A stretch of DNA of 64,000 bases from Protoeuglena noctilucae (GCA_958009085.1 OY253686.1:434001-498000); one strand, 5' to 3'. Shown: positions 41,085-64,000, numbered from the stretch's first letter. The notes: a model not told the origin generated them from the sequence alone. A program made the numbers and translations.

Positions 41085-41281
41085 AAGATGAGCAGTGGGA
41101 CGAGTAACCACGATACCAGTACCGACACGCATGACAACAATGTTGAGTTGTACTCCTGCCCTCTTTGACGCAACTGCGTGCTTCATTACGAGCGCCATTC
41201 CATTTGATGCATTTAAGTCGATATCTACCACAAGTAGAAAGCACGTCTACTGCACCTGCCGCAATAGCACTTCGCAGCACG

Positions 41282-44200: not shown

Positions 44201-47200
44201 CTATCGATTGCTAGCGGTTACTAGAGGATGTTATCGGTTGCTAGCGGGTGCTACTAATGCAGCGAACGTTTGCAATGACAGCAGATGAGTCCCAGTGCTG
44301 CATTGCTAGCCCACGCACACCCCATAACGGCCAGCCTGGTGCACATACACACCCACATGAGGCGATGAGGCAATGGCAGCATCGCAAACCCACTCCCACT
44401 TACTGATCAGCGCCCCCTTGCACTCACCATGACGAGCCCCGCACACACACCCAGGAACACCACCGTGCCCTGCAGCATGTTCAGAAACACGTAAGCACGG
44501 TCCATGTGGGCCGAATGGTAGAGATAGTCGTCGACCACCTCCATGTACGCGTCCTCCTCATAACGCTCCGCTGCGTGGGAGGGCGTGTGAGGGGTGAGAC
44601 AAGGTAACGGTGACCATCGCATGAGATCCCACAGCACAACCTTCTGCTCAACATGCACGTCGCTCCCCTGATGGAGAGCATCTGAGCTCAACTCACAACA
44701 TGCACGTTGCCGCCCTAACCGATGGCATCTTAAGTCCATCCACAACAAGCCCGACATATACTCGCTCTAATCAAACCTCCTTGTATCTCACCCGTGAAGA
44801 ACTTGGCGTTCTCGTAGTTGAGCAGCGTGTCGGTCATCCTCGCGCTGCGCTCGTTGGAGAGCTTGTTCTGGGCGCGCCGGAACCGGGTGTTGGCCTCGGT
44901 CACGATGACCGTGAGGGGGAGATAAGACGCCATCGTGAAGAGAACGATGATGCCGACCCAGGGCTGCATCTGCGGGGGGCGGGGGGTGACACGGAGGGAG
45001 ACATGTGAGATGGTGCGATGGGTCGGCAAGAGGCTAATGTGCAAGTGCATGTGCGGGTGCATCACACAGCGCGAGGCGCGTGACATGGTGTGTGTCAGTG
45101 TATAGCCAGCTGCCATGGGGGGCGTGTGAGGCAGATGTGTCGTACAGTTGTGTGGCTGAACTGGTCTTGTTGTTTTGCGCCGCTATGACCTAAGCGATCG
45201 CTGACCTGTGTGGCCAGGTAGGCGCAGGCCAGTCCGATGTCCAGGCACGCCGGGCCGAAGAATTGCTGCGGAGGAGAGGGGAGGGGGGGTTGGGGGGTCT
45301 TTCTGTAAAGGTGGCCAAGGGGCAGAGCACAGCACGATCGTGGGTAGCCAATGGCACGTTCTTAAGCAGTCAACGGCACAGTCTTGTCCACTCGCTGTGT
45401 TCGACGCAAGTGTATACTCTCCCTCACCAGTGCGTTGTTCATGAGGAACTGCAGGCTGTCGAGTCCCCGGTTGACGACCTCGACCACCTTGCCCGTCTGC
45501 TTGTTGAGGTGCCAGTTGAGGTCCAGGTGAAGGAGCTTGACGAACATGCCGTGCGCTGAGGGGGGATTAGAGAGTAGTGAGAAAGGTGGGGTCAGGGTGT
45601 ATATAGTACTAGTCTATGCAAGGGCGCAAGTGTGGTTGTCGTAATTGGACATCGATGCAAGGGGCCGGGCATGCATTAGACTGGGGTTGGATGCAAGGAG
45701 CCAGGCATGCAGTTGCAAGAGCCATGGTAGCATAGCACGTCCCAGCTATCACGTCGTGCAACGCTCTCGCTCACCGAGTCGTCGGTAGGCTGCCTGGTTG
45801 AGGGGGATCATGCACAGCGATCGCACGTTCTTGATGACGCCGAAATCAGATGACATGCCGCCCTGGGCGAAGTAGAGGACCAGGTAGACGACCGTGACGG
45901 GGAAGATGATCCAGCTGCAGGGGGATGGGGAGAAGGGAGATGGCTATTACATTTTGAATGATGATCCAGCTGCAGAGGGATGGGGACTACAAGGGTGGGT
46001 GGGTGGTACAAGGGAAGATGTACCAGCTGCAGGGTAGTAGAATGGAAGAAGGGAGGGCGATGCCACGTCACGCGGAGCGCTGCGTGTATGGCTGCGCGTT
46101 GTTTGCTTGCACACGCCGCAAAGCGCACCGGAATCGTTCGGCTGGGCTGTCCGTGGTGTGCGGGTCGTTGGGGTCATGGGATGCCTCCGACAGGCGATTG
46201 ATGAAGCGCTTGTAGGCCCAGGGTACCGCGATGTTGATGGCGCGGACGGCCAGCAGGCACGCGAAGGCGATGACGGCCAGCAGCTTGTGGTATCCCGACT
46301 GCAGAGAGGGGGGAGTTGCGCGGTGAGCGGTGAGCGGTACGCAGAGCGAGGCAGGGTCTCCTGCTTCGCGTGAAGCAAAGCAGCGGCCGAGTGCTGTGGG
46401 TCGGGGGCACACACAGCGCACCCAGCTGTGGCAAAGCAAACAACACCAGCAGCACCCACCCACCTGGGGCCAGGTCGACTTGACGAGGGTGATAAAGATG
46501 TCGAGCGTGCTGCTCTTCCCCATTCCCTTAGTGAAGAAGCCGCGCGGGACGAACCAATCATCCGTCTGCACCTCCGCCACCTCCTGCCCGGGCCTCGTGC
46601 GCGTCGCCAGCGCGAGGGTGAGCGCCGTGCAGGCCAGTAGCGCACTGATACCTGCAAGTCACACACGTGGCTGGAGTCAATCGCGGGAACCGTGCATTTG
46701 CGCGTCCGTTCGCAAGTAAAACCTGCACAGCCCGTGCAGCCAATTGCAAAGTGCCGCAGCGTCGCGGCAGCGTCACCGTTGACGGCGATGACGCCCCCGT
46801 TATCCATCGCCGGCGCTTGGGTCGCGATAGCGAGGACGTCGCCGGCCATGCGCAGGGAGGCGAGCAGCGTGGCGGGACCTGACGCCGCAATGGCCTTCGC
46901 GGTCCGCCCGGTAGAACGCGCGCCCAAGTAGGCGAAGCAGGCGTTCATCACGAGCTGCAGATAGATCAAAGCATCGACTGCCGCGTCGAAGAAGGAAATG
47001 TGATGACGCGCGCGCGCGTGGAAGCCTGCAAAGCAGCTCACCCCGGCGAGGACCACATCGGCGCACTGAGAGGCGAGGGAGCCCCCATTGACCGCGGCGA
47101 GGACGCCATGTACGACGAAGGATACGCCGGTAACGGAAAGGAAGACAACCACGGCGCCGTAGTTCGCGCGGTCCTGTGGAAGCGTTGCGGCCAAGGTCAG

Positions 47201-47392
47201 CGCTCCCGCGGAGCCCCGAAGCGCGTCCCTGCGAATTCGAGCAGCCTGCACCTTCACGTGCTTCTCCTGCGCTTTGTACGCCGCCCAGATGGCGCCGAGA
47301 ACCCCTGCTGCTGCCAAGGCAACGCTGCCTCCTAAGTCGAGCACATGGCGGGCCAGATGCCCGCCAGGGCTTTGTTCCAGGAACAGCGACAT
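41282..47392 (-). CDS. Half-size ABCB transporter, HMT1/ABCB6 type with N-terminal TMD0
   Basis: [17 protein letters not shown]...[95 protein letters not shown]. Hydrophobic N-terminal exon; start at 47392 is tentative. Confidence 0.9.
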
Positions 47393-47538
47393 CCCCGCTG
47401 CAATGCTGATGAAGAGCCAGCGCGGCGAGCTCTTGCGAAGCCATTCGCCGCGTCTGTCAAACTGACTTGCCAGTGGCCGCGTGCCGTGCCGTGCTTTCAA
47501 CCGCGCAACGGTCGCGCTATTCCCGACTAATGCCAGCA

Positions 47539-49456
47539 TCATTTGAGCGAGTATGGGTCGTAGGCGCCCTCCGGCGGGTCCACGGTGGCCGAGAATGCCA
47601 TGTAGTTGATCATCTCGTAGAAATCGTCGTGGCGGAATTTGTCCACCAGCAGCTGCACGTCGTGGTCGGAGAGCCACTTGAACTCCAGGTCCACGTTCAC
47701 CACCTGCTTGAACTGCTGCTCCGTCACGTGGCCCACCAGGCACGGCGAGTTCTGCGCAGGAAGGGCGTGGGGGGCCATAGGTGAGGGCCGGGGCGGAAGG
47801 TTGAGATGGGGACGCAGGTGCAGAGGCTGTGAGAGCAGTCGAGGGCCGCGGAGGGCAACAAGGGAGGGCAGTGGGGTGGAGAGACGGTGGGGTGAGGTAT
47901 GGTCGGGTGGGGTGACGGTGGGGTGGGGCTACGGGCACCCCCCTAGCACCATGGATGAGTAGCAATTATCCAGCATAGCTTCTCGCCTTGTTGCGCGCCG
48001 CGTCGTCGAAGAAAGGCTTGACCAGGATGCCCCGGCGCAGGACCTTCTCGCGGATCTCCTGCAGCATCGCCTCCAGCCGCGCCTCGTCCTCCTCGGCCAG
48101 GATCCTGGGCGCAGGGAGGGGCGTGGGGATGCAGGGTGGGGTGGGATGGGGTGGGGTTGAGGGAGGTGCAGGGTGGGATGGGATGGGGTTGACAGTGGTG
48201 CAGGGGGGGGACGCCGGGAGGACCTGTGTTGTAATTATCTTTGGCATGCTTGTTGCTGTTCCCGCCACGTCTCAGATACCGTAAGCTTTCCCTGTGGCCG
48301 CTATGTGCTGCATCCCTGCCTCACCCAAAGTTTATCCTATAAAGGCAGCCCCCCAATGCCTCACCTGGAGCTCCTCTGGTACCTCGTTTTGTCCAGGAGC
48401 TCCTCTGGCTCGGCAGGGACCTCGGCCAAAGGCGTCTTCTCGAGGTTGGCCACCGTGAAGACCGTGTCGACGTCCTTGCAGAACGAGCGGTAGTTGACCA
48501 TCTTGAGCGAGTCCGTCTTGTCAAACGTGTAGGCTTCCGCGAGCCTGCGGGGGACAGGGGACGGCCGACACACGTGGCGAACGCTTGGCGGTGTGCTGCC
48601 ATGCTTGGTGTCGGCGACGCCGGGCGGAGCTGCTCGGCGCAGTGGCCGATGCAGATGTACGTAATGTATCGAACACGCAAGGAGGCGGTGCGCGGGGCCG
48701 CCGCGCGCGCACCTCTGGAGCTCGTCCGTGGAGAGCGCCTTGTTGAGGCCCGCCATGTTCAGCCCGGCGAGGAACTGCGTCGGCGTGATGTCACCCACGC
48801 GGAGCTGCATCCAGAAAGCGCGCGGAGCTGAGCGGCGCGGGCGCCGGGGGCGCTGGCTCCCGCGGGGCGGCCACAGAGCGCGGCACAGGCCTGCCCGCAT
48901 GCCCGGGGGACGACAGGGGCGGGCGAGGAGGCTTAACATGAACCCGGACCGTTGCAAATCTATGTCGTGGTTTCGCCGCGAGTCGCAAGGCGCGCGGCGC
49001 GTCCTCGACAGGTGCGGGCGGGGCGGCGCATCATCGCCCAACATGTGACCCGGCCACGCCCACGCGCAGGGTTTACGGCATACCGGAGAAGGCATGCGGC
49101 TTTGACATAGATAAACAAGTCGAGATGAGCCGAGACATGAGACGAAGAGGCGTGTACGCGCCCGCAGGGGGCCCCACGTTCGCGAGCGCCTCACCTTGTC
49201 AAAGTCGCGGAAGAACTCGTTCAGGCGGATGCGGTTCTTGTAAACATTCTTCTTCACCTGCAAGCGATGCAACCGACGCATGTTCAGGGGACGCGGGGTG
49301 CTGCGCGGGCGGCAGGCGACCCATGCAGTGCATGAGGGACTCCGGACGGGTCGGCGGCGAGGAGGCGTGGCAAAAGAGCGGGCCCCCTCGGCCCGACGCC
49401 ATGCTCGCCTTCGCCATCGCCTGGTCGAAGCCAGGGACGTCGACCGTGGCCACCAT
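47539..49456 (-). CDS. EF-hand flagellar protein, FAP115-like (6 exons)
   Basis: MVATVDVPGFDQAMAK|VKKNVYKNRIRLNEFFRDFDK|LRVGDITPTQF...VNYRSFCKDVDTVFTVANLEKTP...RRGILVKPFFDDA...GHVTEQQFKQ...INYMAFSATVDP. FAP115 similarity is from recall only. Confidence 0.7.
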
Positions 49457-50347
49457 GTCCTCCACCCCGGCCTGCTCCCCTCCAACCGGACCCTCCTAAG
49501 CTCTGAGAGATGCTCTCCTTATCGACCGAAAGCGCTCAGTCAGGCTCCAGTTCTACTGGTACAGCCGCGAGCAGGACGAACAAATGGAGGTGCGCGACCG
49601 AGTCAGCCCAACTTGCAGGGATTTCCGCCGATTTGCGGCCCGCCGCACCGCCCACGGCCCACTGATCTGTTACTTGTTGGACGGTGATCTAGACACCCAC
49701 GCGACGCGCTGCAGGGGACCCTAGGCTCCTGTCCCTGCTTTGGTTGACATGTGCAACGGGCTCCTGCTTCCTGTTCATCGGCTGTCGGCTGGCACAATCA
49801 ACCCCTGTGAAATCCTGGCGAGCGCTCCGTCTCGGCGACGCGAGAGCCATTCCTAGGCGCAGTGTCCACGACCCTTGCTCTGCCTGACCGCTTCCCTTCC
49901 CCTGGTGAGTCGGATTCACAGTGCGAGTGACAAGTAAACATGCGCGGCATCAGGTACCGCCAAGCGCACAGGAGACTTGGCAGGGTTGCGCTCGCGTCTC
50001 CTGTCGCCCACTTTGTTTTTCACGCACCGCCAGAGGCTCTGTCGGTCGAGATACGCATCCTAATCGCTGACGTCACTATTCTCAGCAGATTGCCTTGCCG
50101 TGGGGCGCTTGCGCGTCGCCGCCAGCCGCCCCAGGGGGGCTCAGCATGCGATGCGAACATCTCTGAATGCCGCGACCTGTGTAGTGCGCTATTCACCACG
50201 TCGTTCGCGCACATATGACATCGTCATGTAGAGGGTCGATTGCGACCCTCGCACATCCAGCCCCGCCTCCAGGTCCGCTGGACGCAACCTGCCTCGGCAG
50301 GCCACGGCTCCTGGCTCCCGGCCCGGGCCCCGGACGATGCTCGCGTG

Positions 50348-53300
50348 ATGGCGTCCGCGGGGGAGCGTTCCGAGTCGCGGCTGCCAGGCCCGCAGAAGTC
50401 CAGGCCCGAGGGCCTCGCGCCGAACTTCACGGTAACTTCAAGCGCCGCACAGTGCTGCCTGCAGCTCCGCGCTGCGTCTCTGCTGCGCGAATCCAAACGC
50501 GATTTCCATCGCTTCTCCGCAGTTGACGGCTGAGGCTCCGGCGCTCGAGTCCGCGCCCGACTCCTACTTCCTCCGGCCCACGCGGTCCCCCTCGGTGGGC
50601 GGATTCCGAACCACGCCGCCGGTCGCGGGGCTCGGGACAGAGAAGCGCCCGCGCTCCGGCGGCATCCTGCGGCGGAATAAGCGGCGCGTGGATGCCCGCC
50701 GGCCCGTGCAGGAGTCCCGGCCGTCCACGGAGGCCGCGAATGCACTGGCGAGTCGAGACATGCGCATGCGTAGCACCCGTATCTGCGTGTGCCAGCGCTA
50801 ACTGGCATCCCGCCGCCTCGCTGCAGGTCCGCGACATCCTCGCGGCGTCCGCCGGGGTCCCGCGGCCTCCCTCCAAGCACACGCGCCCGGCCGCCTCGTC
50901 CCTCACCGTCGCGAAACGCCCGCGGCCCGCGGTGGGTCCCAGCCAGAGCATGGCGAGCCTCGCGGCGACCGGGAGCCTCTCCAGCGGTGCGTTCGCGGGC
51001 CCGGGGCGCGCGGCGGGGACCGGGGCGCAGGCGGGTGGGGGCCTGGGGGAGGTGGTGGCGTCGGCGGCACGGTACGCGCTGCCGGGTATGCCCGCGCGGC
51101 CCTCCCTGCACTCGTCGCTGCTCCGGAACCTCAAGAGCGAGAGGGACATCGTGGGGGTGGACGTGGTGCTCGGGGCAGGCGAGGGACGGTTAGGGGGGTG
51201 GACGCTGGGTGTCTTGGTACGCTTACCCTTGATATGCTTCACATAAACGGCCCACCCTCACCCTCACTCTCACTCTTACTCTCACTCTCACCCTCACCCT
51301 CACCCCCACCCTCACCCTGACCCTCACCCTCACCCATCCCCACTCACCCTCACCCACCCCCAGACTTCCTTTTGCCCGAGCGCCCCGAGACCTTCACGGG
51401 ATTTAAACCCCCGACCAACACGGGCGCGTTCGAGGACCACGGCCCTCACCAGCGCCACGCGATGCAGACGGCGATTGACAATGATGAGGCAACGGTGGGG
51501 TTCAGAGTGGCCTTGGATCAGAGCATCCCGCCGGGGATCGTGACGGGGGAGGACGCGGTGGTGTACTTCATGAAGGGTGAGGGGTGTTAAGTGGTGTTAA
51601 GTAGTTTGATTGTGGGTATACAATGTGGTGTACTTCATGAAGGGTGAGACGGGGTTGGAGTCGGTATGATCGTAGTGTGGTTGATGAAGGTCACGGGGGA
51701 GTGACCGTGCTGGATAGGAGGTGGCGAAGGCAAGGCCGGCGACTCCAAAAGCCCCCCCCCCCCAGGCAACGCCAAGCCGGGCCTGATGCTGTACGGCAAC
51801 TACACTCGCGGCCACATGCCCAATGACCTCGACTTCCAGCCATTTGACTTGACCATCGTGCCACGGGAGATGAGGGACCCCACGCACTACGTCATCACCA
51901 GCACCAGCGTCACGCAGGTGAGGGGGAGTGAGCGTGCTGTGCGTCCAAGACGGGCCATGCGCGGAAGGGTGCGATGCTCTCTTACGACTATAAGCACGCT
52001 CTCTCGCACTATACCAACCATCCACGCAACCTGCTCGCCATCAACCCCATCCCTTACCACTCACCCGGTTTCACCCTCCCCCTCTCCCCCCTCAGATCTT
52101 CGCGGATGGCGGGGACGCCGACTCCCAGCTTCTCCCCGAGTGGCTCCAGGACCGGCAGGTGTTCAAGATGATCCGGAGGATGAACTTCTTCCGGTCTTTC
52201 CGCATCATACGGGCGTTCAAGCTGTGGCGGCTGCACACGCGCATCCTCAAGCACGAGAGGGCGCACAAGCAGCTGCAAGGCGAGGGGCGGTCGCGTCGTG
52301 TCGTGTTGTGTTGTTTGTTTGTAAATGGTTGTTGTATCAGAAGCACACAAGCTGCTGCAAGGCGAGGGGCGGCTCGCGATGTGTTGTGTTGTGTTGTTTG
52401 GTTGTTGTTACCAAGAAGCATGTTGCTTGTACTCTTGCAGAGCACCTGCTCCTCATCCACCCCACCTACGGCCCCGTGCTGCGTCGTGCCGCTGCCGCCG
52501 CCGCCTCCGTCCACGACGACCACCGCACGCACAAGTGGGCGCGCAAGAGGGACGGGACGTGGGTGCGGCAGGCGGTCAAGTCGTGGCAGCCGGAGGACGG
52601 GTATGTGGACCCTAACTGGCGGCCCACGGCCAAGCAGCTGGGCATCACGGGGCTGCTGGCGGGGGTAGGTGAGGGGCGAAGGGGAGGTGGGATGGGCGAT
52701 GAGGATGCACGGACTGACAGCGACTACTGGTAACACTACTCACACTGCAAATGTCAACCTCTACTAATACCGGACAAAATTGTCACTAAGTATTACTAAG
52801 TAAACGTCATTACCATTACTATCATCAACCCCTTGCAGAGACGCACGACTTGCCGCTCAAGCTCCCCTCGCTGGTGTCGTTCCGCCAAGGGGCCATGGAC
52901 AGCGCATTCGAGGCCATCGAGAAGACCGTTGATGCCATCGTGGCGATGCTGGAGCCGGAGGGGGCGGCGGCGGTGCGGGCGCTGCAGGTGAGGGGAAGCG
53001 GGGGTGGGGGTGGCAGTGGGGTTGGCAGTGGGGGTGGGGGTGGGGGTAGCGAGGGGGGTGGCAGTGGGGGTGGGGGTGGCGGTGAGGGCGCAGGTGCAGG
53101 CAAGCGGGGAAGCGGGCGTATCTGATACATTTGTACATGTCAGTGCATCTTCATTCAAATCCTCATCTTATCTCAGGAGACCAAGCCCCGTGATCCCACC
53201 CCCGAGGAGCGCGTGCTGGGCCGCGTGGCGCGTGCGCCTGGCACCCTGGCGGAGTGGCGGGAGAAGAGCATGTATGCGGCAAAGGAATCGATGGCGGAGG

Positions 53301-56300
53301 CGCAGAGGAGGACGAAGGAGGCGGAGGCACAGGTGGGGTGCTTGAGGGTGGGGGTGGTGGGGAGCGGGGAGGGGTTGCGAAGGTGCTACGCAGCGCAGCG
53401 CAGTGCAGCGCAACACAGTAGCACTATGTACGACCATAACCCGCGTATCTATTCTCCAACGTTCCCCACTTTGATCGACCCCACCCATCACACCCACCCT
53501 GACCCACCCACCACACTCCCACACAACACCACCCACCCACCCACCCTCGCACCCCTCCCTCGCCCTCCAACCCCTCCCCTCTTCGCTCCACCTCACCCAC
53601 CACCCCCAACCATTGCCCTGACCAACCCACCACCCACCCACACCCACCACACCCACAACCCATACCCACCAACCACCCACACCCACCGCACACCCACCCA
53701 CCCCCCCAGGTCGCCCTGATGGGTCGTTTAGTGCGTCTGGTCGACTATATGCTGGCGGAGGGGGTGGCAGAGGCCGTGCGCACGTCAAGCGAGGCACTGA
53801 CGCATGTGCTGGTACGCACACGGTCGCTGTTACTGGTAGAGGGCAAGTCGAACATCGAATACGATAAGGCGGCGGGGCCCAGGGAGGGGGAGTCATCGGT
53901 GAGGGGAGTGGCAGGGTTGCTGGATTGTATAGTATATACTATAAGTGGTATGTCTAGTTACTGTGTTACACAAGTGAGCCATTGACAAGGCGGCGGGGCC
54001 GAGGGAGGGGAGTCGTCGGTGAGTGGGATGGAGCATGCAGTGGGAGGCAATACGCATAATTACTCAACACCTAGTAACTTTATACTAATCGCCACTATCA
54101 TCTCTTCAATTCAACGCAGATCACGGCGGAGCTGGACGTGATGCGCCGGCAGCTGCAGGGTGGCGCCACGCGCTCCCGCAGCACCAAAGACGAGGGCCCT
54201 CGCGTGCTGTCGGTCAAACTGACATTGGATCCCGATCTCGACACCGTGATTGGGAGCACGGAGGGAATGCTCGTGGCGCTCAGGACACGGGTGGCGCAGG
54301 TGAGGGGGGGTGGGGTTGTGGGGTTGTGGGGTGGGGTGGGGTTGTGGGATGGGGTGGTGTAGGTGGGGCTGGTGGGGGGTGTGGATGTGGGTGGGGTGGG
54401 TTGGTGGGTTGGCTAGGGTGGCGCAGGTGGGGTGTGGTGGGTGTGGGTGTGGGTGGGGTGGGGTTGTGGGGTGGCAAGTGGAGCTGGGCCAATGCATGAA
54501 TCCCCACTAACCCCATCCCCACTAACCCCACCCCCACCCCTTCACCCAGACCCTTCGCCTCACACCATCTGCCCCCTCCACCCCTAGCAAATCAACCAAC
54601 CCATTCCCACTAACCACACCCCCACCCCTTCATCTTCACCCCAGACCCCCCGCCTGGCCCTCTCTCCCCGCCTGACGCCCTTCCTGCCCAACGGCCAACC
54701 CCACCGCCTGATCAGCATCGAGCGCATGGTCGACCTGCTGATGGACGCCGAGGCTCTCACGCGGCGGGTGCGGGTTCGATTCTCGCGGGACTTCAAATCG
54801 GCCATGGGCGAGCGGGGGCTCAAGGCGTACTTCGCGTCGCCCGAGCGGCTGCTGTGGGTGTTCACGTGGCGGGCGTCCGAGTACAGGCGAGGGCATAGAA
54901 TTGTAATTGCTAATGGTATGTTAATCACTGTTACTTGCATAATAGTAACAGGACTGCTGTGGGTCTTCACGTGGCGGGCGTCGGAATACAGGCGAGGGCC
55001 ATGTTGTATGTGTGGGTAATATTGACTATACAATGACAACCAATGACAACACAGCTGCATGTGGCAGGCATACCCATTATTCATAATTTATTACGAATAC
55101 TTGATCATTAATTTTCCTTGTCGTTCCCAGGAACGCCGTGGTGGACCCCGACGAGTTCATCCGCGACCTTCAAGGCATGGTGGCGTGGCAGGCGCAACTG
55201 GCATCCGCACCCGCCGAATTGCAATTGGGCACTTTGCGCGTCGACGCAATGGGAATCTCATCCCGAGTACTCCCGGAGGTGTCCCGCGTGGTGGCCGAGA
55301 TGACCAACATGATCATGACGATCGTGACACGCGGGTGCCAGAAACTGCAGGGGTTATGTGCAGATGCCATCGCGGCGCTGCAGCAGCGGCCCACGCAGCT
55401 GGGGGAGTTCGCCGAGTTTATACGGTCCATGGCCGCGCACTACTCGGAGGTGAGTTGACTGTTATTATAATAGTATAGGTGAGGGAGTAACTATTACTAT
55501 TATTACTATTACTATTATTACTATTACTATTACTATTACTATTACTATTACTATTACTACTATTACTATTACTATTACTATTACTATTACTATTACTATT
55601 ACTATTACTATTACTATTACTATTACTATAACTATTACTATTACTATTACTATTACTATTACTATTACTATTACTATTACTACTATTACTATTACTATTA
55701 CTATTACTGTTACTTTTACTATGACTATGACTATCACTATCACCAACCATCTCCACCCACCCCATCACCGCCCACCCCACCACCACCCGCACCCCCACCC
55801 CAAACGCAGGAGGGCGAGGGCGTGCGCGAGATCGAGGAATCTTCCGCGGTGCTCCACAAACTGGCGCGCATGTTCGGAACATCCCCATCCTTCACCTCAG
55901 CAAGGGGCGTGCCCGCACCCGCACCCCCGCCCCGCGCCCCGCCCTCGCGCCCGCCCAATCGCGATCGCAATGCCGATAACGATGACGATAACGATGTCGA
56001 TAACGATACCGATACCGACGCCGAGCACACGCGCGCGGTGATTGACCGGATGCCCCCGGTGGTTCAGTCTGCGTGGGACGCGACACAGCGCGCTCTGGCG
56101 GACTACCACTCTGCCAGAACGCAGGCCAAGGACTACGTGGAGAGTTTCCGGAACATGGCGGCCACGTCGCTGGTGCAGGCCGCAATGCACCAGGAGCGGG
56201 AAGTGACGAGTGAGGAGTGGGGGGTGGGGTGGGGTGGTGGTGGGGTGGTATGGGATGGGATGGGCATGAGGGATGGGATGAGATTGCAAGGAAGGCAGTG

Positions 56301-59300
56301 TGTGAGAGAGCACAGTGTTCCACTCACATCACGCAATTCATGATCTCTTCTTATCCCCCCCAGTGTTCGTGGATTCCGTCCGCACCGGCATCCTCGTGAT
56401 GCTGCAGACCTCCTCCTCAGCAGCCATCGTGGAGCTGGCAAGGCTCACCCAGCGCCTCAACAATCTGAGAAACGAGTCGCAACGGCTCATGGGGTTCCAG
56501 AGCACGTTCGTGGTGCGGGAGCTGGGGCAGCTGTCGGAGGTGAGGGTTAATGGGGGTGGGTGATGGTGGGTGGTGAGGGTGGTATGGGGGGTGGGGCAGC
56601 TGTCGGAGGTGAGGGTTAATAAGGGTTGATGGGTGGATGGGAGAGCACCATCAAACGTGCTGTGCAGTTGTCCATATCCTCACCCCTCACCCCACTCACC
56701 CCTCACCTCTCACCCCCCTCCTCACCCCTCTCACTCTTCTTTTCTTATCCCTTACCCCCCAGGTCCTGTCCGTGGCCGCATCGGTGCTCTCCTTGGCCCA
56801 GCGCGTCTGGCACGCCATCGTGAGGTGGGAAGAGACCACGGCCGAGCTCCACACCACCAGCCTCGACTCCCCAGCGTGCCAACCCAGCACAGGTGAGTTT
56901 AGCTGCACACCACCACCACCAGCACAGGTGAGGGGCGGAGAGGGATGGGCAGGCATGCGAGAGTGAGAGTGCATGTCGTTGCTGACAGACAGTCGAGTTT
57001 TNNNNNNNNNNNNNNNNNNNNNNNNNNNNNNNNNNNNNNNNNNNNNNNNNNNNNNNNNNNNNNNNNNNNNNNNNNNNNNNNNNNNNNNNNNNNNNNNNNN
57101 NNNNNNNNNNNNNNNNNNNNNNNNNNNNNNNNNNNNNNNNNNNNNNNNNNNNNNNNNNNNNNNNNNNNNNNNNNNNNNNNNNNNNNNNNNNNNNNNNNNN
57201 NTCCTAACCCCCCCACCTATCGTGCCCCTTACATCACCTCCCCCTCCGTGCCCCCTCACTTCGCCGCGTGGTTCACGACATGTGGAAGATGGCAACACGC
57301 GAGTCAGAGCTATTAGAAGAGCTGAGGACGATCGAGGCGGAGTGGTCGGCGATGGAGCTGACCTTCCGGAGATCGGAGGAGCTGAAGTTCGACATCGGTG
57401 AGGGTGTGGATGGGATCATTGGTGATTGGTGGGAACGAAGTTCGACATCGGTGAGTTAGGAATCGGGGGACTGGTAATTGGTGGGAATTGATATTGGACA
57501 TCAGTGAAGGGTGTGGTGGGGTGGTGGGGTGGGGTGGGAAGTGAGGTAGTAGTTATATAAATGATAATTAATTACATACCTCCCACCCTCCCCTTTTCCC
57601 GTCTTTCGCAGTGCACAACATCGTTACGCTCCTCCCCTCTCTCCCACCCCTCCCCATTTTCAAACTTCATTTTTTAAATTCTCTTCCTATCCCGCTCCTC
57701 GCAGTGCACAACATCGTGGAGCTCCTGCCCCGCATGAAGTCCGCGGCCCGTCGATTGGAGAACATCGCCATGAGTCAGTACATATCGGGCATACAAGACA
57801 AGTTCAGCAAACACGAAAAGACCTTCAGCTCCGTCCGGGGGGTCTTGACGGACGTGCAGGCGTTTCAACAGGAGCTGTTATTGTTGTCGAGGGTGCTGTT
57901 ACTGCCGGAGATCAAGGCTATATATGCGGACGCGGCGAACGGTGAGGGGGGGCGAGGGAGGTTGGAAATGATCTGTTTGTAAACAACATAACGTGGTGGT
58001 GGTGGTGGGGGTGGTGATGGGGTGGGAGGGTGGTGGTGGTGCGGTGGTGGGTGTTGCAAGGGAGTGGGTAGTGTGTTGTATTAAACGCAAGCGATTAGTG
58101 GTGGATTGCATGACTGAGTTACTTATTGATATCCTATCTATCCCCCCCTCTCGCTAAACCCCAGAGGTGGTGGACTGCGCGACATACATGACACCAGCAA
58201 CGTTATCCATAACATCCCATCTCCCTCTTATCAACCCCAGAGGTGGTGGACTGCATGACGCAGTGGCGCAACATGGTGTCCGTCACGAGAGAGCACCCGG
58301 GGCTGGCCGACGCGTGCGCGGAGGGGGGCCCTCTGTCGCGTGTAGCAGTGCTTGCCAAGAAGATCGCTGCGGTCAAGTCTGTCACGCTCGAGGCGCTCGT
58401 GACGCTCGGTGAGCATGGGATGGATGAGGATAATTGTGGTTATTATGATTGAGAATGCAAGTTGTATTGTGTTTGTTATTACAGGTATAAATGGTAATAG
58501 TTATACTTATAATTTATCTATAATATTTTTTATTTACTATTCTTGCCGTAATATTGCTTATTGGTTTTATAAGTCCTTGTAATACTAACACAGTAACTCA
58601 TACCCCCCCTTAATTCGCAGTCCGCCGCGACTTCCCCCGCCTGCTGTTCGTGGACGACCAGGCGTTGATGGACGCGGTATCAGTGGGCCCCTACGTGGGC
58701 CGATTGACGCCGGACGTGTTATTGCAGTGTTTCGGGTGCATTAAGCAGCTGGACGTGCGGGGGTCGGGGGTGGAGGTCCTGGGGGTGCTCGACGCCCACG
58801 GGGAGGCCGTAAAGTTCGAACAGAGCGTCGTGCTCAGGTGGGTGGGATTCGAAATGGGATGGGATGTGACGGGGGACGAGTTTTTGGAATGGTTATCGTA
58901 TTGTTGTGTATGGTTTGTGTTGTATTGATGACGTGATATCAGTTACGATAGGATTGATGACGTGATATCAGTTACGACAGGAAGTATATATACATAACAA
59001 TATTTTTTGTTTTGTCAGAGTTAATATTACATATATTGTGTAGTAAAACAGCAATCATGCATCCTAACACTTCCGCTTCCGTCCACCCCTCCCCCGCAGC
59101 CCCCAGGGGTCGGTGGCCACGGAGCTGAAGGCCGTGGACCAGGAGCTCTCCAGGACCATCAAGGGGGCCGTGTTCGCGTGCATGAACGATCAGGTGAATA
59201 TAGATATATATTTGAACATATCATGTCCAATTAATGAAGATAAATATAGTTGTAAAATTATTGTTTAAATCCTTAATTATTGTTACCCTTTCCACTATAT

Positions 59301-62300
59301 GCTTTTCTCATCATGATCACTATCATCATCATTATTATATTATCATCCTAACCCCCAACCACCCCCTTCCACCCCCCTTGCAGTCCGAGGGCGGCGGCCT
59401 GGGCGCGTCGTCCACCGAAGAGTCCATGGCGGGCCGCAGGGACTACCCCACCCAGGCGGTGTTTCTGGCAGAGCACCTGCTGTGGACGGAGAGCCTGCAG
59501 AACGCGCTGGTGGAGGGGACCAAGCCCAATGCGGCGCCCAACGCGCTGAGGGCGCTGAAGGACGTTTGTGTGGAGCAGTCGATGGTGAGGGGTGGTGTGT
59601 GTGTGTATGTCGATGTGTATGTGGGTGTTTAATGTGTGTGAGTGTGTATTGGTTGTAATGGTGGTTGGTGGTGGTGGTGTGGTTGGTGTGGGTTGTGGTG
59701 TGTGTGGGTAATGGGAGCCAAGAGGTGTGTCGTTAGGTGAATATGCAGAGGCTAACACCCCCCCTCTCTCCCTGCCCTTCTCAGACCATCATGGAGCAAG
59801 GAAAGGCATTATGTCTCTCCGGGTTCGAGGCCATCAAAGCGGCAATGGACCAGGACGAGCGCAGCGCAGCGGAGACGGCCCGCAAGATCGGGGCGCGGCA
59901 CGACGCAGGGCTTCTGACGGTGCGCCAGACGCGGGCGGCCGTGCTGGCCATGCGGCGCAAGGTCCGGTGCCGGACGATGCTTCTGGGTGTGTATGCGACC
60001 CTCGTGCTCTACTATCGGGATATTATCGACGAGTTACTAACAGAGTGGCCCGTCGCGCCCACTGACTTCGTGTGGCTGCGGAACGTGCGGTGAGAAACGC
60101 TGGGGTGTGCATTGGTGTGTATTGTTATGCATATCGCATAGCCCATATTTACATGCCTGTGGAACGTGCGGTGAGGGCTGATGCTGCGGGGTGCATGTCA
60201 CTAGTACTACCTTGCATGTAGAATAGCACCATTCTGCATGGATAATATTATCCCTATCACTTACCCGCAAGTGCTAATCAATAGCAATGGTAACAGAAAT
60301 TAATAGTAATAGCAATACTAATTGTAATTGTAAAAGTTATGTTTATATTTATATATATAATTAAAGTCTATTAGTTGATTAATACCATCAATCCCGCATC
60401 CCCGCAGCTACTTCCTCGACTCGGACCGCCTGCTGGTGCGCGTGGCGGACATCTCGGTACCCTACGGCTTCACCTACCAGGGCGGGCTGCGTGACCCAGT
60501 CCAAGACCTGGCGCTCACCTCCGCGACCGGACTGCGCGCGATCGCTGCGGGGGTGGCGCAGGGGCAAGTGCTGGCGCTGTCGCCCGACCCGGCCGGCGCA
60601 ATTCTCCCCCAGACCACCGCCAAGGCCCTGGCCTCTGCGTTCGGCCGCGTCCACTTTGCGATGACGTGCACGGCGAGCATGTCGCACCGCGCGATCGCGA
60701 GGGTGCTGTCGGCGGTGGTGGAGAGCGGGGCGTGGTGCTGCTTGGACAGGGTGGAGGCGCTGCTGCCCGAAGTGCTCAGCCAGATGGCGCAGCAGATATT
60801 CGAGGTGAGAGCGTGGGGGGAATGGTGTTTGTCAATGTCATCATTCATATATAATTACGTTATGTATTAGTTATGCTTATCAATTTTTTGTATTACTATT
60901 ATTAATCATAAAATCTATAATAATATAATATCATAATTATGGCTTATAGATACAATCAGATATACTTATAAATGTAATATATATCCCCTTTAACTGAACT
61001 CCCTTGCAGGTGATGACGGCCTGGGCCCAGTCCCACGTGGAGGTGGTGAAGATCCGCGGGGGCGATGTGAACCTGCAGACGGGGCGCGACGTGGCGGGGG
61101 GCAGTTTCCAGTAATTCCTCGGAATATCCGCGATCGGCACTCGCAAGCCGGAGCTACTGCACCAGCTCCTGCAGTGGCTCACGCGGCGCATGGCGATCCT
61201 GCCCGGGAGGCTCTCGTGCGTTTTGGAGTCGGTCCTGATGTCGCTGGGATTCGAAGACCACACCAAGGCGGCGAAAAAGGCAGAGACGATGCTTTCTCTG
61301 CTCGAGGCGCACCTCATGCCCCAGCAACACTACCAGTTCGGACCGCGCATGCTCGCCAAGCTCGTGCCCTACCTGCGCGACCGCGGGCCCGTGTATCAAG
61401 TGAGGATAGTGGTGGTAAAGTGGTTTGTTATTGGAATTGACGTTGCTGATTGTTGTTTTGCTTGGTGTTTGTGCTGTGCTACATGGACTACGTTATCGTG
61501 CTCTCATTGTGCCACCCGCTCTCCATACCACCGCACACAGCACCTCCCCCACCATCACCCTGACTCGAACACTTACCCCTCACCCCACCCCACCCCACCC
61601 CACTTACCCCACTTACCCCACCTCACCCGCAGGTCTCCGGCCTGCGTGCGGCACACCTCATGCACGACGCGTCCTTGGACTCCGTGCTCCCCTTACTGAG
61701 CCCAACGGACCGAGACGTGGCGATGATGGTGCTGGAGGACGTGTGGGGCGGGGAGGGTGATGACGGGGTGGAGATTGAGGTGGGGCGGTGCTGCTTGCCG
61801 CTACCGGCGCTCAATGAGGCGACGTGCGGGTTTGGTCCTTGGCAAGTCGACTCCGCGGTCCGCAAGGTGCAAGGCGAGGCGAGCGTGACGCGCCCGGAGC
61901 AGCTGCGGCGCACGCTGATCGACGTCGCGCAGCGGCTGGTGCAGCGGCGGGCGGTGCTGCTGGTGGGGCCCTGCGGGTCCGGCAAGTCGCTGGTCGTGCG
62001 CATGGCCGCCGAGCTGCTCACGATCGTCCAGTCGCCGCTGGTGGCGAAGATCGAGCACGTGTTCGTGGATGCGGTGCCGTTCCAGCATCTATTCGGGTAC
62101 TTTGCGGCAGATAACCGCACGTGGCGGCCGGGGCTGTTGGAGCGACTGGTGCAGCAAACGGCAGAGGAGAGTGAAATGGAAGATGCGGCGAAGGGAGACG
62201 CATCGTTCGGGGACGATGCGCGGCCCGTGCAGCGCGTGGTGGTGCTGGACTGTTCCGCGGAGTCTCTGGCATTAGAAGACGTCGCGCCATTGTTAGCACA

Positions 62301-64000
62301 TGGCGTGGCGCACCTCCCCAACGGCGCTATGGTGCAGGCCGCGGGGCCGATCGCGTTCGCCTGTGAGACGGAGACGCTCGCAGGCCTGAGCCCGGCGCTC
62401 CTCGCCTCCGTCCCTTGCGTCCCGCTCACTGTACCCGTACTCGACCCGACGATTGACAGCGTGCGAAAGGACCTCTCAGCACGGTCCACGTCCTTCTCAG
62501 AGCACAATGAGAAACAGGGGGCCGAGTTCCTCCATTCCCTCGCCACCTGGGCCTTCCAAGAGCTCAAGTCGCTCTCTAGGGTGGGACCGATGCACGCAGT
62601 GTTGGGGCGGGCGTGCCAAGTCATGCAATCCATCTACGAAGCGACCTACCAGCACGCGAGCGCGGCGAAGGCCGAGGCGCTGCCCGATTGGGCCATCGGC
62701 ATCCCCAACTTCAGCCGGACAGATGCACTGAGTTGTTGCGCGTTGGTGTATGGTGCGGTGTGGGCGATCGGCGGCTGTCTCACCCCCGATGAGGGTCAGG
62801 AGTTCGAGTCTCGCGTGCGCGACACGCTCCCAAGTAATTTCTGCCGCGTCCCGCCCCCCTCCACGTCCCTCTTTCACAGCATGGTGGATGGGGTGGCGCT
62901 CGCACTCGTGCCCATCCCACCTCATGGGCCCGACACCTCGCCCGTGGTGAGAATGCATGGGTGGATGTGATCGCGAGTTAGTGCTATGTTAGTGTTTACT
63001 GATCGCGATCTGGCTGTTACTTGCAAGCTACTACCAGCTACTGCATGTATCACAAAGGACTAGCTGCTTAGTACAACGCTTTGGTACCTCGGGACCGCTC
63101 GCATGCTCGGCCCGGTCCCTCGTCACCTGTTTGCCCGCTCCAAATGTTGATTCGAACCCGCGACCTCTCTCCCGCAGGTCCTGACGCGCAAGGTGGCGGT
63201 GGAGCAGGCAGCGGCGGTGGGCGAGGCTCTGACTTACGACGATCGTGTGTTTGTCCACACGGCGATGACCATGGCAGTCGAGACGGCGGCGCTCATGGCG
63301 CTAAAGAGCTTTTTGCATGTGCCGCACATGTCTGCGGCGGGCACGGAGACGCGGGAGCACTTCGCGCCCATCGTGTTGGGGCCGCCCGCCGCGGGGAAGA
63401 GCGCCCTGGTGCGGGACATCGGTGAGGGAGCGCCACCCTCCCTTACCACCCCTCCCAACAGCAACAGCACCCATTCCCACCTCTCCCACCTCCCCTCTCC
63501 CCCCCCCAGTCCTCGTCACCGGCCACCAGCTCCTGGCCGTCCCCCTCACCTCCTTCGCATCGCCAGAGAACATGTCAGGCACTCTGACCTCCTCCATGCG
63601 CAACGACAGGGGTCACGTGCTGAGGCCCATCCTGCGGCCCAAGGCGGTCATCGTGCTGGACGACCTGCATTTGCCACTGCAGGTGAGAATTGCAATTACT
63701 GAAATGCTTATATTTGTATAGTGAATTATTCTGTGATCGTGCTTGACGACCTGCTTGCGCCCTTACAAACCCTCACCCCCACTGCCACCCTCACCGCCAC
63801 CCCCACTGCCACCCTTGCAACCACCCCCACTGCCACCCTTACAACCACCCCCACTGCCACCCTTACAACCACCCCCACTGCCACTGCCACCCTTACAACC
63901 ACCCCCACTGCCACCCTTACAACCACCCCCACTGCCACCCTTACAACCACCCCCACTGCCACCCTTACAACTACCCCCAGGCCTGCGAGGGCTGCTCGGC
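50348..64000 (+). CDS. Divergent dynein heavy chain-like gene (partial, more than 25 exons, one in-frame TAA)
   Basis: DNAH6-like N-terminus (FQPFDLTIVP...YVITSTSV...EWLQDRQVFKMIRRMNFFRSFR..RAFKLWR), linker RRDFPRLLFVDDQALM, YPTQAVFLAEHLLWT, DFVWLRNVR|YF...VPYGFTYQG, AAA1 SGAWCCLD...EVLSQMAQQI, QQHYQFGPR, AAA2 GPCGSGKS, AAA3 GPPAAGKS, VIVLDDLHLP. Confidence 0.85.
51255..51360 (+). repeat. Intronic (CCCTCA/CTCTCA)n microsatellite
   Basis: Directly visible degenerate hexamer array in a dynein intron. Confidence 0.85.
53490..53707 (+). repeat. Intronic C/A-rich (CACC)n low-complexity tract
   Basis: Directly visible, ending at the acceptor cccccccag. Confidence 0.75.
55490..55740 (+). repeat. 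(ACTATT)n microsatellite, about 250 bp, intronic
   Basis: Near-perfect hexamer array decaying to ACTATG/ACTATC at its 3' end. Confidence 0.95.
57002..57201. other. Assembly gap (200 N) inside the dynein gene
   Basis: Run of N; exons may be missing here. Confidence 0.99.
63770..63975 (+). repeat. 24-bp minisatellite (ACCCCCACTGCCACCCTTACAACC)n, intronic
   Basis: About 8 tandem units, visible as the VAVGVVVR repeat in the antisense ORF. Confidence 0.9.

Follow-up and report, generated by a model that had tools for sequence, protein, structure and literature searches.

Internal gene duplications that copy splice sites and form new introns or lengthen existing ones reportedly affect a minority of genes per genome (Gao and Lynch, 2009). 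Introners with short introns and nucleosome-sized exons are said to have been described by Huff in 2016. In human F7, the minisatellite of intron 7 consists of six or more near-identical units. According to PMC1557585, the first unit of this 37-bp minisatellite (VNTR) extends over the boundary of exon 7, and splicing is confined to the furthest upstream donor. A review (PMC3443670; see also PMC3265369) outlines how introns may be created when an exon segment containing AGGT is tandemly duplicated, and the same review describes direct repeats flanking introns that Daphnia gained in double-strand-break repair. For introners, PMC9860276 gives target-site duplications of 3–9 bp that flank the whole element.

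In the window studied here, which is the whole 64-kb stretch of DNA from a marine alga-like genome that was analysed and to which all rates refer, about one in four of the examined splice junctions is accompanied, a few dozen bases into the intron, by a second, decaying copy of the junction. There are 21 such events across four genes, and 20 of the 74 junctions in the two intron-rich genes, encoding a dynein-like protein and an ABC transporter, are affected. The repeat blocks are 14–46 nt long and lie 35–127 nt apart inside introns of 154–417 nt; the periods (35–127 nt) have a median of 81, and the copy number is two or three.

Junction copies in the dynein-like gene

An unbiased local direct-repeat scan (offsets 20–300, +1/−2 scoring, score of at least 14, low complexity removed) returned 49 repeats for the whole window, and eight versions of the window shuffled in 100-nt blocks gave 0, 0, 0, 0, 0, 1, 1 and 1. 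By region, 18 matches were found at 51300–63760, 16 at 41001–50000 and only 3 at 1–41000. In addition, 80 junction probes from 40 introns in three genes were compared with their own and with other introns. A score of at least 14 was reached by 17 of the 80 in the own intron (two of these, the dyn6 and dyn24 acceptors, are of low complexity) versus none of 3120 comparisons with other introns, where the maximum was 13. Chance is therefore rejected as a source of the copies. The same probes bear out the earlier claim that the copies are peculiar to their own exons and form no dispersed family, and neither the fillers between the copies nor the introns have relatives in the window.

The first-pass annotation had listed ten junction pairs in dynein introns, and all ten are present where it placed them, 93–100% identical at offsets of 53–121 nt. 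For the donor pairs starting at 51558, 52263, 53866, 54850, 56524, 57384, 60080 and 63650, the identities over the limits first listed are 23/23, 26/28, 35/37 (one gap), 42/45, 28/28, 19/19, 15/15 and 18/19, respectively; for the acceptor pairs at 57607 and 58160, they are 18/18 and 19/19. Our analysis adds three events in this gene, seven in the neighbouring ABC-transporter gene and one in a gene near 15 kb. The dynein cases absent from the earlier list are the donors 54289/54416 and 56884/56919, the acceptor 54512/54600, and third copies at 58098 and 57474.

The dynein-like identity is based on Pfam AAA_6 matches (E 2e-11 and 2e-8) and a Dynein_AAA_lid match below the cut-off. The exon model, on the plus strand, preserves the frame through 23 introns and puts one copy of nine of the ten listed pairs across a junction. 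Only the junction 52987|53177 (with a loose end at 53174) has direct RNA support, and the remaining model was derived from frames and consensus.

The donor block of intron 1 (51558–51581, exon end 51576) recurs at 51625–51648 with a period of 67 (24/24; own-intron score 24 versus a maximum of 11 elsewhere). In intron 3, a GC-donor unit (52261–52322, exon end 52279) is followed by a whole-unit tandem copy at 52343–52405, with a period of 82–83 and 66 of 73 aligned positions identical. The donor block of intron 7 (53866–53903, exon end 53898) is copied at 53987–54023 (35/37 with one gap, period 120–121) beyond an unrelated 83-nt filler. Intron 8 is affected at both ends. Its donor block (54289–54314, exon end 54299) recurs at 54416–54441 with a period of 127 (own-intron score 14 versus at most 11 elsewhere), and the real acceptor unit (54600–54655, exon start 54645) has an inner copy at 54512–54560, 88 nt apart with one small indel; the ungapped core is 33 nt (score 27), and by inspection of the sequence the similarity runs on across the AG. 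The GC-donor block of intron 9 (54849–54894, exon end 54886) has its inner copy at 54954–54999, with a period of 105, 43/46 identities (42/45 over the limits first listed) and an own-intron score of 37 versus a maximum of 10 elsewhere. The filler here is 59 nt long, AT-rich and unrelated to the sequence after the copy.

Further downstream, the donor unit of intron 12 (56510–56551, exon end 56539) is copied at 56579–56620 with a period of 69 and a 28/28 core. The stretch 56884–56932 holds a donor block (exon end 56892) and its 14/14 copy at 56919–56932, with a period of 35, in an intron that runs into an N gap. Repeat finding revealed a three-copy donor array with a period of 53 at 57368–57508, composed of the real unit (57368–57402, exon end 57397) and copies at 57421–57455 and 57474–57508, in which identity to the real unit drops with distance from the exon (100%, 80% and 63%). 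The acceptor of intron 13 (57699–57730, exon start 57705) has an upstream inner copy at 57606–57637, with a period of 93, an 18/18 core and a score of 20 over 32 nt. An acceptor array comprises 58098–58114, 58157–58178 and the real 58233–58254 (exon start 58241), with identities of 22/22 and 16/17. In intron 19, the donor unit from 60076 onward (exon end 60089) is copied at 60157–60175 with a period of 81 (18/19). The pair at 63650–63668 is exonic only, as had been claimed: the piece lies 33 to 14 nt before the donor 63683, its end being 14 nt short of it, and is copied at 63736–63754 in the last intron (18/19).

The junction copies are real DNA. Contigs from an independent-study run (X2), the one independent DNA run compared, span 42333–51246, 51368–53032 and 53008–55480 without a single other letter or gap, and break only at three simple-repeat spots (42278–42332, 51247–51367 and about 53000–53070). 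The comparison reaches to 55480, and pairs from 55481 onward lie outside it. These contigs cross six dynein pairs, including those of introns 1 and 3, and all ABC pairs above 42333 without a difference, which speaks against the earlier suggestion that the copies could be the ends of collapsed arrays or come from a haplotype merge.

Copies in the ABC-transporter gene and the spliced sites

All events in the ABC-transporter gene lie on the minus strand. A three-copy acceptor array consists of the real 45900–45931 (exon start 45914) and inner copies at 45960–45986 and 46012–46034, with periods of 55 and 112 and scores of 24 and 17, and the X2 contig matches it without differences. The acceptor at 44050–44156 (exon start 44049) has an inner copy about 66 nt upstream, seen as a match at 44060–44090 (period 66, score 16) in which the AG-plus-exon part scores 10. 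The acceptor at 43654–43691 (exon start 43684) is copied at 43727–43764 with a period of 73 (35/38). A donor array comprises the real 43077–43100 (donor 43089, a position read from the sequence), a 24/24 copy at 42977–43000 with a period of 100, and a more decayed one at 42901–42920 (score 13–14). The acceptor unit at 42652–42707 (exon start 42672) is copied at 42754–42805 with a period of 98–102 as two adjoining matches (scores 17 and 19); RNA contigs end or continue at 42669–42672. The donor at 42212–42357 (exon end 42341) has decayed inner copies near 42251–42274 and 42212–42231 (scores 12 and 11). Finally, at the donor of 41789–41920 (exon end 41900), the end of the exon and the beginning of the intron are repeated about 77–78 nt into the intron (matches 41789–41816, score 19, and 41832–41842, score 11).

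In the ABC gene, the outer copy is spliced. RNA contigs from two runs (X9 and X11) join 41529|41896 (cut +4), 42101|42341, 43684|43911 and 44049|44428, that is, they use the outer copy in all four copy-bearing introns among the RNA rows listed, bearing in mind that contigs drop rare isoforms.

In the fourth gene, whose model is putative, a donor block on the minus strand (15117–15132) is copied at 15045–15060 with a period of 72 (16/16). The intron is about 165 nt long and lies in an otherwise intron-poor region.

Origin of the junction copies

Based on the above results, we suggest, with a probability of roughly 55%, that the copies arose by recurrent small local tandem duplications that include a junction, with the outer copy used, the inner one silent and selection acting as a filter. 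The duplicated unit would consist of the splice junction and 9–38 nt of adjoining exon, and its source may be a repeat-prone regime of short, low-complexity introns, through slippage, microhomology-mediated duplication or break repair. The outermost copy (first donor or last acceptor) would remain the working site, so that the mRNA would be unchanged, and the inner copy would become part of the intron, lengthen it by one period and decay. Selection would remove duplications lying entirely within exons. Since the periods approach the original intron length, most surviving duplications would have to contain a junction; for periods close to 80 nt in introns of some 100–150 nt before duplication, geometry alone would make most tolerated duplications include one. 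The inner copies are best read as silent pseudo splice sites, neither a mobile-element family nor a designed regulatory device.

Tandem duplication had been proposed from the first, and several pairs are true head-to-tail units (52261/52343, 56510, 60076 and the three-copy arrays at 57368 and 58098); the accompanying idea of intron expansion agrees with the one period added per copy. Similarity continues through the intron part of the unit at 52261 (z 7.4), 60076 (z 5.4), 56510 (z 3.4) and ABC 42652–42707, where it spans the exon and intron parts. The graded decay at 57368 is expected if new units arise beside the working junction. No event of this type falls inside an exon: at scores of at least 14, there is one exon–exon match versus 16 junction–intron matches. 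The six intron-only events all have short periods (29–61), and each of the 17 events whose period exceeds 61 includes a junction, as geometry predicts. However, none of these 17 is intron-only, where by our estimate, made without a fitted model, geometry would permit about one fifth, and this counts against the duplication reading. In 20 of the 21 events, exon sequence makes up little of the unit (mean share 0.25, maximum 0.57), and the shares depart from uniform placement (KS test, p 9e-6), while a mean of 0.5 would be expected from simple random tandem duplication; the small share thus counts against pure geometry or random placement. Furthermore, in about half of the pairs the intron part has no detectable duplication although the exon-plus-splice-site block is 93–100% identical (intron-remainder z 0.1 at 53866, −0.4 at 54849, 0.0 at 57384, −0.4 at 56884 and 1.0 at 51558). 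The part that stems from the exon has been preserved far better than the intron part, whereas under neutral decay the two should differ no more than two-fold. Neither this nor the small exon share is accounted for by tandem duplication.

Both features would fit another explanation, which we consider possible but doubtful: putative DNA breaks would favour about 5–15 nt around splice sites, and an error-prone, template-copying end joining would paste in a 14–46 nt exon-plus-splice-site copy together with filler. Such breaks might be caused by nucleosome edges, by G-runs or R-loops beginning at the intron 5′ end, or by old transposon ends. If so, the process and not selection would centre the copies on junctions, and it would be a main route of intron growth here. 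The limits of the blocks are sharp (−9..−38 to +3..+12 at donors, −4..−17 to +9..+31 at acceptors), and the filler is unrelated to the post-copy sequence in about half of the pairs. Some fillers have possible marks of iterative or snap-back synthesis, namely a 10-nt stutter (51583–51602), a perfect 16-nt palindrome in the intron 7 filler (53928–53943) and an 8-nt inverted repeat (54928–54935/54944–54951). The 5′ thirds of introns are G-rich and the 3′ thirds C-rich, which would fit arms made of decayed junction copies, and the motifs GGTGGG (z 6.1), G[TC]GAGG (z 3.0) and CTCAC (z 4.1) are more frequent than in composition-matched shuffles. Against this, several pairs are plain whole-unit tandem duplications, and most of the junction bias is already explained by geometry and selection. 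An intron-wide hairpin was rejected (mean z −0.7 versus within-third shuffles, with only 4 of 40 introns below z −2.5), which also speaks against break repair.

It seems improbable that the inner copies are functional decoys, maintained through selection or exon-derived conversion as U1/U2AF landing pads, regulated alternative sites coupled to nonsense-mediated decay (NMD), or recursive-splicing points. The far better preservation of the exon-plus-consensus block would suit such a role, as would the GT or GC start intact in all eight dynein inner donors examined (and, on inspection, in the ABC copies) and the two dynein inner sites, 54991 and 57612, whose use would insert 105 nt and 93 nt, respectively, in frame and free of stops. 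However, the other eight of ten dynein inner sites would cause a frameshift or meet a stop, and the RNA contigs use outer sites only, in four of four cases. The three-copy arrays decay steadily with distance, like unconstrained DNA, the periods and block lengths are patternless, and CCCAG inside introns is, if anything, depleted (5 observed versus 10 expected). As to recursive splicing, which takes an acceptor and a donor side by side (AG|GT) within the intron and uses them stepwise, some inner donors are preceded by AG (54426, 54991 and 56608) and others are not (54018, 57450 and 60170). In the dynein gene, the inner sites are probably silent. The first-pass annotation was right that pseudo splice sites are created, but their alternative use finds no support in the four testable ABC introns, at least within the limits of contigs, which may miss rare use.

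An origin as introner footprints, in which short DNA transposons that generate introns would have left the repeats as target-site duplications or by nested insertion, appears quite improbable. The median intron (228 nt) and exon (209 nt) lengths of the window genes resemble those of introner-rich algae, GC-AG introns occur in the window, and a 12-nt inverted repeat starts at the inner donor of the intron near 15 kb. For P. calceolata, PMC9481584 gives an intron length peak near 210 bp and GT and GC donors. The repeats of the window, however, are 14–46 nt long and flank just the first or last 35–127 nt of the intron, and the 40 introns share no common sequence family within the window (one weak pair). 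Second copies of 18 fillers were absent from the window apart from low complexity, and as to terminal inverted repeats, the 40 introns had no general fold excess (the z values given above), with the 12-nt repeat near 15 kb as the one case.

An assembly or haplotype-merge artefact, or the collapse of longer arrays, is hardly credible: the window is draft sequence interrupted by 200 N and the copies are located in repeat-rich introns, but the independent contigs are identical through all pairs in 42333–55480, and the copies differ by substitutions, with graded decay in threes, which two haplotypes cannot produce.

Comparison with known systems

Introners resemble the window in introns of about 200 nt, nucleosome-sized exons, GT/GC donors and a marine picoeukaryote setting (PMC9481584, PMC9860276). 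Those of pelagophytes, Micromonas and others differ by forming element families with 3–9 bp end duplications (PMC9860276), both of which the window copies lack. The Daphnia introns, according to the review, share with the window direct repeats that bracket filler DNA, with break repair as the source there and a possible one here, but there, short repeats surround a whole new intron, whereas here, repeats of 14–46 nt hold an existing junction and bracket part of an intron.

In the AGGT-duplication model, as given in the review cited above, splice signals are likewise supplied by tandem duplication. However, that model yields a new intron that begins with a copy of the downstream exon start and finishes with one of the upstream exon end, while in the window an existing junction is recopied mid-intron. 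Such an origin was rejected for the window, where the end of the upstream exon is copied into the middle of the intron and is followed by a copy of its own donor and more intron. Internal gene duplications are similar in that a short intragenic duplication can include a splice site and still be tolerated, since splicing takes out the extra copy. The window differs in the 20 of 74 junctions affected in intron-rich genes and in the biased exon share.

The F7 minisatellite concerns one locus, whereas the window has 21 separate junctions in four genes within 64 kb, mostly with two copies; its units are unequal and partly unrelated, and acceptors are affected too. The likeness lies in head-to-tail abutting units with the working junction in the first or last one, which in the window have periods of 35–127 nt and include three three-copy arrays, with part-unit repeats in about half. 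Moreover, in F7 the tandem units start in the exon and the true donor is followed by intronic pseudo donors, and in the window the outer donor is used in both ABC donor cases with RNA.

Gene Setting of the Window

The window is eukaryotic and GC-rich, with a GC content of 0.52–0.70 in 2-kb steps. A dynein-heavy-chain-like gene runs on the plus strand from about 51.3 kb to the window end. Two of its exons matched Pfam AAA_6, the family for the dynein motor's hydrolytic ATP site (E-values of 2e-11 and 2e-8), and the match of the exon 61633–62946 to Dynein_AAA_lid was slightly under the cut-off. The exon model was based on open frames, GT/GC-AG ends and frame continuity, with the donor at 61399 set by reading the sequence, and it keeps the frame through 23 introns. 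The dynein introns are 88–377 nt long, and the median internal exon is 209 nt. The AG acceptors 51718 and 51766 are 48 nt apart, and either would keep the frame after exon 1.

The minus strand carries an ABC half-transporter gene, which holds a repeat cluster at 41.8–48.2 kb. At least 24 introns were counted in the dynein gene and at least 12 in the ABC gene, and about 40 kb of long open frames with very few local repeats adjoins them. GC-AG introns with the donor GCGAG were found at 52280 and 54887 in the dynein gene (plus strand) and at 47752–47986 (minus strand), the last being confirmed by RNA contigs of three runs. Both dynein GC donors have a second GC copy within the intron. GC drops from about 0.65 to 0.52–0.57 across 54–62 kb.

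It should be noted that an in-frame TAA (61112–61114) lies within the exon matching the dynein AAA1 site, with AAA_6 matches and an open frame on both sides of it. The Walker-A position reads DPAGAILPQT, which would depart from the canonical P-loop motif. The dynein gene may be decaying or non-catalytic, or the TAA may be a base error. In addition, the intron following the exon end at 56892 contains a gap of 200 N (window 57002–57280). The sequence after the gap enters an open frame (57208 onward) without a preceding AG acceptor, so part of an exon or the acceptor was probably lost in the gap. No relative of the 438-aa dynein exon was found in a scan of metagenome contigs, a protein search found no longer relatives of the dynein exon, and 0 matches were obtained with a degenerate DNA pattern built on an ABC exon.

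Junction Copies within Introns

The first-pass annotation had listed ten cases in the dynein gene (51558..63754) in which a splice junction, meaning the exon edge and the splice site, has a degenerate duplicate inside its own intron, in one case of the exonic part only. All ten pairs were recovered, with offsets of 53–121 nt and identities of 23/23, 26/28, 35/37, 42/45, 28/28, 19/19, 15/15, 18/19, 18/18 and 19/19. An ungapped local-repeat scan of the whole window (offsets 20–300, score of at least 14, low complexity removed) gave 49 matches against 0 or 1 per window shuffled in 100-nt blocks (n = 8). The matches concentrate at 41.8–48.2 kb and 51.5–63.7 kb; only three, a count and not a rate, lie in 1–41 kb.

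Together with a repeat finder, the scan added further dynein cases (all plus strand): two donors with a copy (54289/54416 and 56884/56919), one acceptor with a copy (54512/54600), and two places where a third copy is present (57474 and 58098). In the ABC gene (minus strand), one acceptor is present in three copies (45914/45975/46030), and further acceptor copies lie at 43684/43757, 44049/44115 and 42672/42775. Donor copies of this gene were found at 43089/42989/42914, 42341/42255/42215 and 41900/41838. Among the three matches in 1–41 kb is a donor block whose copy lies 72 nt inside the lone intron of a gene near 15 kb (15117/15045, minus strand). Altogether, 21 junction events were counted in 4 genes: 13 at about 50 junctions in the dynein gene, 7 at 24 in the ABC gene and 1 in the gene near 15 kb. 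None of the 8 junctions of a third, well-expressed gene has a copy. For the dynein and ABC genes together, 20 of 74 junctions are copied. Junction copying is not a peculiarity of dynein, as the ABC gene has the same pattern.

Each copy had been described as specific to its own exon, and this holds. Probes covering donors (−45 to +12) and acceptors (−20 to +45) of 40 introns in three genes were compared with their own intron and with the 39 others. Scores of at least 14 were reached by 17 of 80 probes in the own intron (two of these low-complexity) and in 0 of 3120 cross-intron comparisons (maximum 13, mean about 6.7). The copies are thus locus-specific.

The periods, i.e., the spacing between copies, range over 35–127 nt (median 81). 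The best-preserved block comprises the exon end and the splice consensus, spanning from −9..−38 to +3..+12 at donors and from −4..−17 to +9..+31 at acceptors. At the pair starting at 52261, the whole unit including its intron part is doubled (66 of 73 aligned positions identical; remainder z 7.4). The intron part is also duplicated at 60076 (z 5.4) and 56510 (z 3.4), and likewise at the ABC pair 42652–42707. At 53866, 54849, 57384 and 56884, the filler, or DNA between the copies, is unrelated to the DNA after the second copy (z −0.4 to 0.1). Identity drops with distance from the exon in three-copy arrays (100/80/63%), which suggests that new units arise beside the working junction.

The fillers are often AT-rich, with a GC content of 0.28–0.46 in 11 of 18. 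No further filler copies were found within the window beyond G-rich or C-rich low complexity, and copying of the fillers from elsewhere in the window was rejected on this ground. The 40 introns form no family; there was one weak pair among them.

Other features of the introns were also recorded. The 40 modelled introns (41534–63980) are strongly polar, with the first third G-rich and C-poor and the last third C-rich and G-poor; in the dynein gene's 3′ half, the intron cores are AT-rich. Three motifs exceeded within-third shuffles, namely GGTGGG (z 6.1), CTCAC (z 4.1) and G[TC]GAGG (z 3.0). All 31 donor-like internal motifs fall in the leading 60% of the intron; of the 33 CTCAC motifs, 27 fall in the last 40%. 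Dynein introns carry long simple arrays, one of ACTATT (about 43 repeats, 55490–55740) and one of about eight 24-nt units (63774–63979). The latter array extends to the last dynein acceptor, and its unit holds a branch-point-like CTTAC. Finally, 18 nt close to the 3′ end of dynein intron 1 (51695–51712) recur 227 nt further on, at the start of intron 2 (51922–51939), with 17 of 18 positions identical. The period spans all of exon 2, and the match could be chance or the remnant of a larger duplication.

Four public runs were compared with window positions 41500–55480. Contigs of X2, an independent DNA run that belongs to a named organism and to another study than the samples from which the window may stem, match 41500–42277, 42333–51246, 51368–53032 and 53008–55480 with neither a differing letter nor a gap, and break at three simple-repeat spots only. 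All ABC pairs above 42333 and six dynein pairs lie in unbroken X2 contigs. An assembly or haplotype-merge artefact, or a collapsed array, was ruled out for this stretch on three grounds taken together: the k-mer contigs run linearly, substitutions distinguish the copies, and the three-copy arrays are graded. The earlier alternative that the copies are ends of collapsed arrays is thereby contradicted up to 55480. Run X10 gave mostly low-complexity pieces in 52–54.5 kb and was left out of all claims. The contigs of the independent run break or show single-base indels only at 42278–42332, 51247–51367, ~53000–53070 and 53637–53688, which are G-rich or C-rich simple repeats; this suggests length variation at these four places.

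Splice-Site Use and Origin of the Copies

RNA contigs from the metatranscriptome runs X9 and X11 join ABC exons at 41529|41896 (cut +4), 42101|42341, 43684|43911 and 44049|44428. In all four copy-bearing ABC introns with RNA rows shown, the exon-adjacent (outer) copy is spliced and the inner copy is removed with the intron. Alternative use of inner sites, proposed by the first-pass annotation, was not seen in the contigs; rare use would escape such data because contigs drop rare isoforms. The only dynein junction with direct RNA support is 52987|53177 (loose contig end at 53174), and the RNA cover of this gene is thin, with one contig at 53174–53421. Hypothetical use of dynein inner sites would cause a frameshift or a stop in 8 of 10 cases. 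The other two, the donor copy 54991 (+105 nt) and the acceptor copy 57612 (+93 nt), would give in-frame, stop-free additions.

Based on the above results, we suggest that recurrent small local duplications, each taking in a splice junction, would have produced the copies. The outer copy would remain in use, the inner copy would decay as intron, and selection would remove duplications internal to exons. We give this explanation as a whole a probability of roughly 0.55.

The scan matches at a score of at least 14 comprised 16 junction-intron, 13 intron-intron, 3 exon-intron and 1 exon-exon match. By our own grouping, seven intron-intron matches were assigned to junction units as continuations, after which 6 intron-only events with periods of 29–61 remained, among them 43379–43392/43440–43453 (period 61), 45654–45675/45690–45711 (36) and 58924–58982 (29). 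Where the period exceeds 61, every event (17 of 17) contains a junction. If the period is about 80 nt and the intron measured about 100–150 nt before duplication (length minus period), most exon-sparing duplications must span a junction, and geometry predicts much of the junction bias. The earlier proposal of a junction-centred tandem duplication is partly supported, in that the copies (21 events) would stem from local duplications which include junctions; much of the centring is what geometry predicts, and the exon share does not fit random placement. This share of the period averages 0.25 and is below 0.5 in 20 of 21 events (KS against uniform, p 9e-6). Both the small exon share and the presence of 93–100% identical blocks beside unrecognisable intron parts are a misfit with plain random tandem duplication followed by decay. 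The latter contrast may be due in part to rapid indel turnover in low-complexity intron DNA.

The main rival is an origin by junction-targeted break-repair, which we consider unlikely. Break-and-copy repair near junctions would account for both misfits. It may also fit the 10-nt stutter (51583–51602), the 16-nt perfect palindrome (53928–53943) and the 8-nt inverted repeat (54928/54944) in the fillers. A broader version, which we hold to be rather doubtful, is that splice junctions in this lineage are hot spots of break-and-copy repair, that a short junction copy with filler is pasted just inside the intron, time after time, as the main route of growth, and that introns are largely fossil junctions. 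If true, it would explain the G-rich 5′ arms filled with donor-like motifs and the C-rich 3′ arms filled with branch-point-like and acceptor-like motifs. If the junction bias is mutational and not selective, DNA breakage would be tied to the splice-site sequence or its chromatin.

Three further candidates were set aside. For recursive splicing, inner donors follow AG at some sites (54426, 54991, 56608) and not at others (54018, 57450, 60170). Intron creation of the Rogozin type was dropped because the upstream exon-end copy sits mid-intron and not at the intron 3′ end. The idea that introns act as long hairpins based at the junctions did not hold up as a general cause (mean z −0.7 against within-third shuffles).

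Significance and Known Systems

The original observation is confirmed and extended, and it is unusual in its density and in touching donors and acceptors of several genes. It bears on two open questions: the way in which introns become longer, and the means by which cells pass over look-alike splice sites close by. About one junction in four in the dynein and ABC genes has a natural, dated series of look-alikes at 35–127 nt, and among the inner copies are intact donors (GT/GC) and acceptors (AG) in their exon context. They offer a test bed for splice-site choice, including first-donor and last-acceptor rules and branch-point placement, and make duplication-driven intron growth measurable in an ecologically abundant marine picoeukaryote. 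The copies are also a practical trap for gene predictors, since inner sites score equal to true ones.

In 2009, Gao and Lynch reportedly described, at genome scale, internal duplications of genes that take splice sites along and create or extend introns. A search of the openly readable literature found no account of junction copies at a comparable density in any organism. The layout predicted by the tandem-duplication model of intron creation is unlike the layout found here, and in Daphnia intron gains by break repair, short repeats bracket the entire intron (PMC3443670). Introners are characterised by 3–9 bp target duplications and by families (PMC9860276), neither of which was found here. 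The window resembles the published figures for Pelagomonas calceolata, which has 63% GC, 0.45 introns per gene, intron lengths peaking at 210 bp, and donors of both the GT and the GC kind (PMC9481584). The nearest single-locus precedent is human F7 intron 7, where a 37-bp minisatellite begins in exon 7, identical pseudo donors follow the true donor, and the most upstream donor alone is used (PMC1557585); in the window, donors as well as acceptors are copied, and in several genes.
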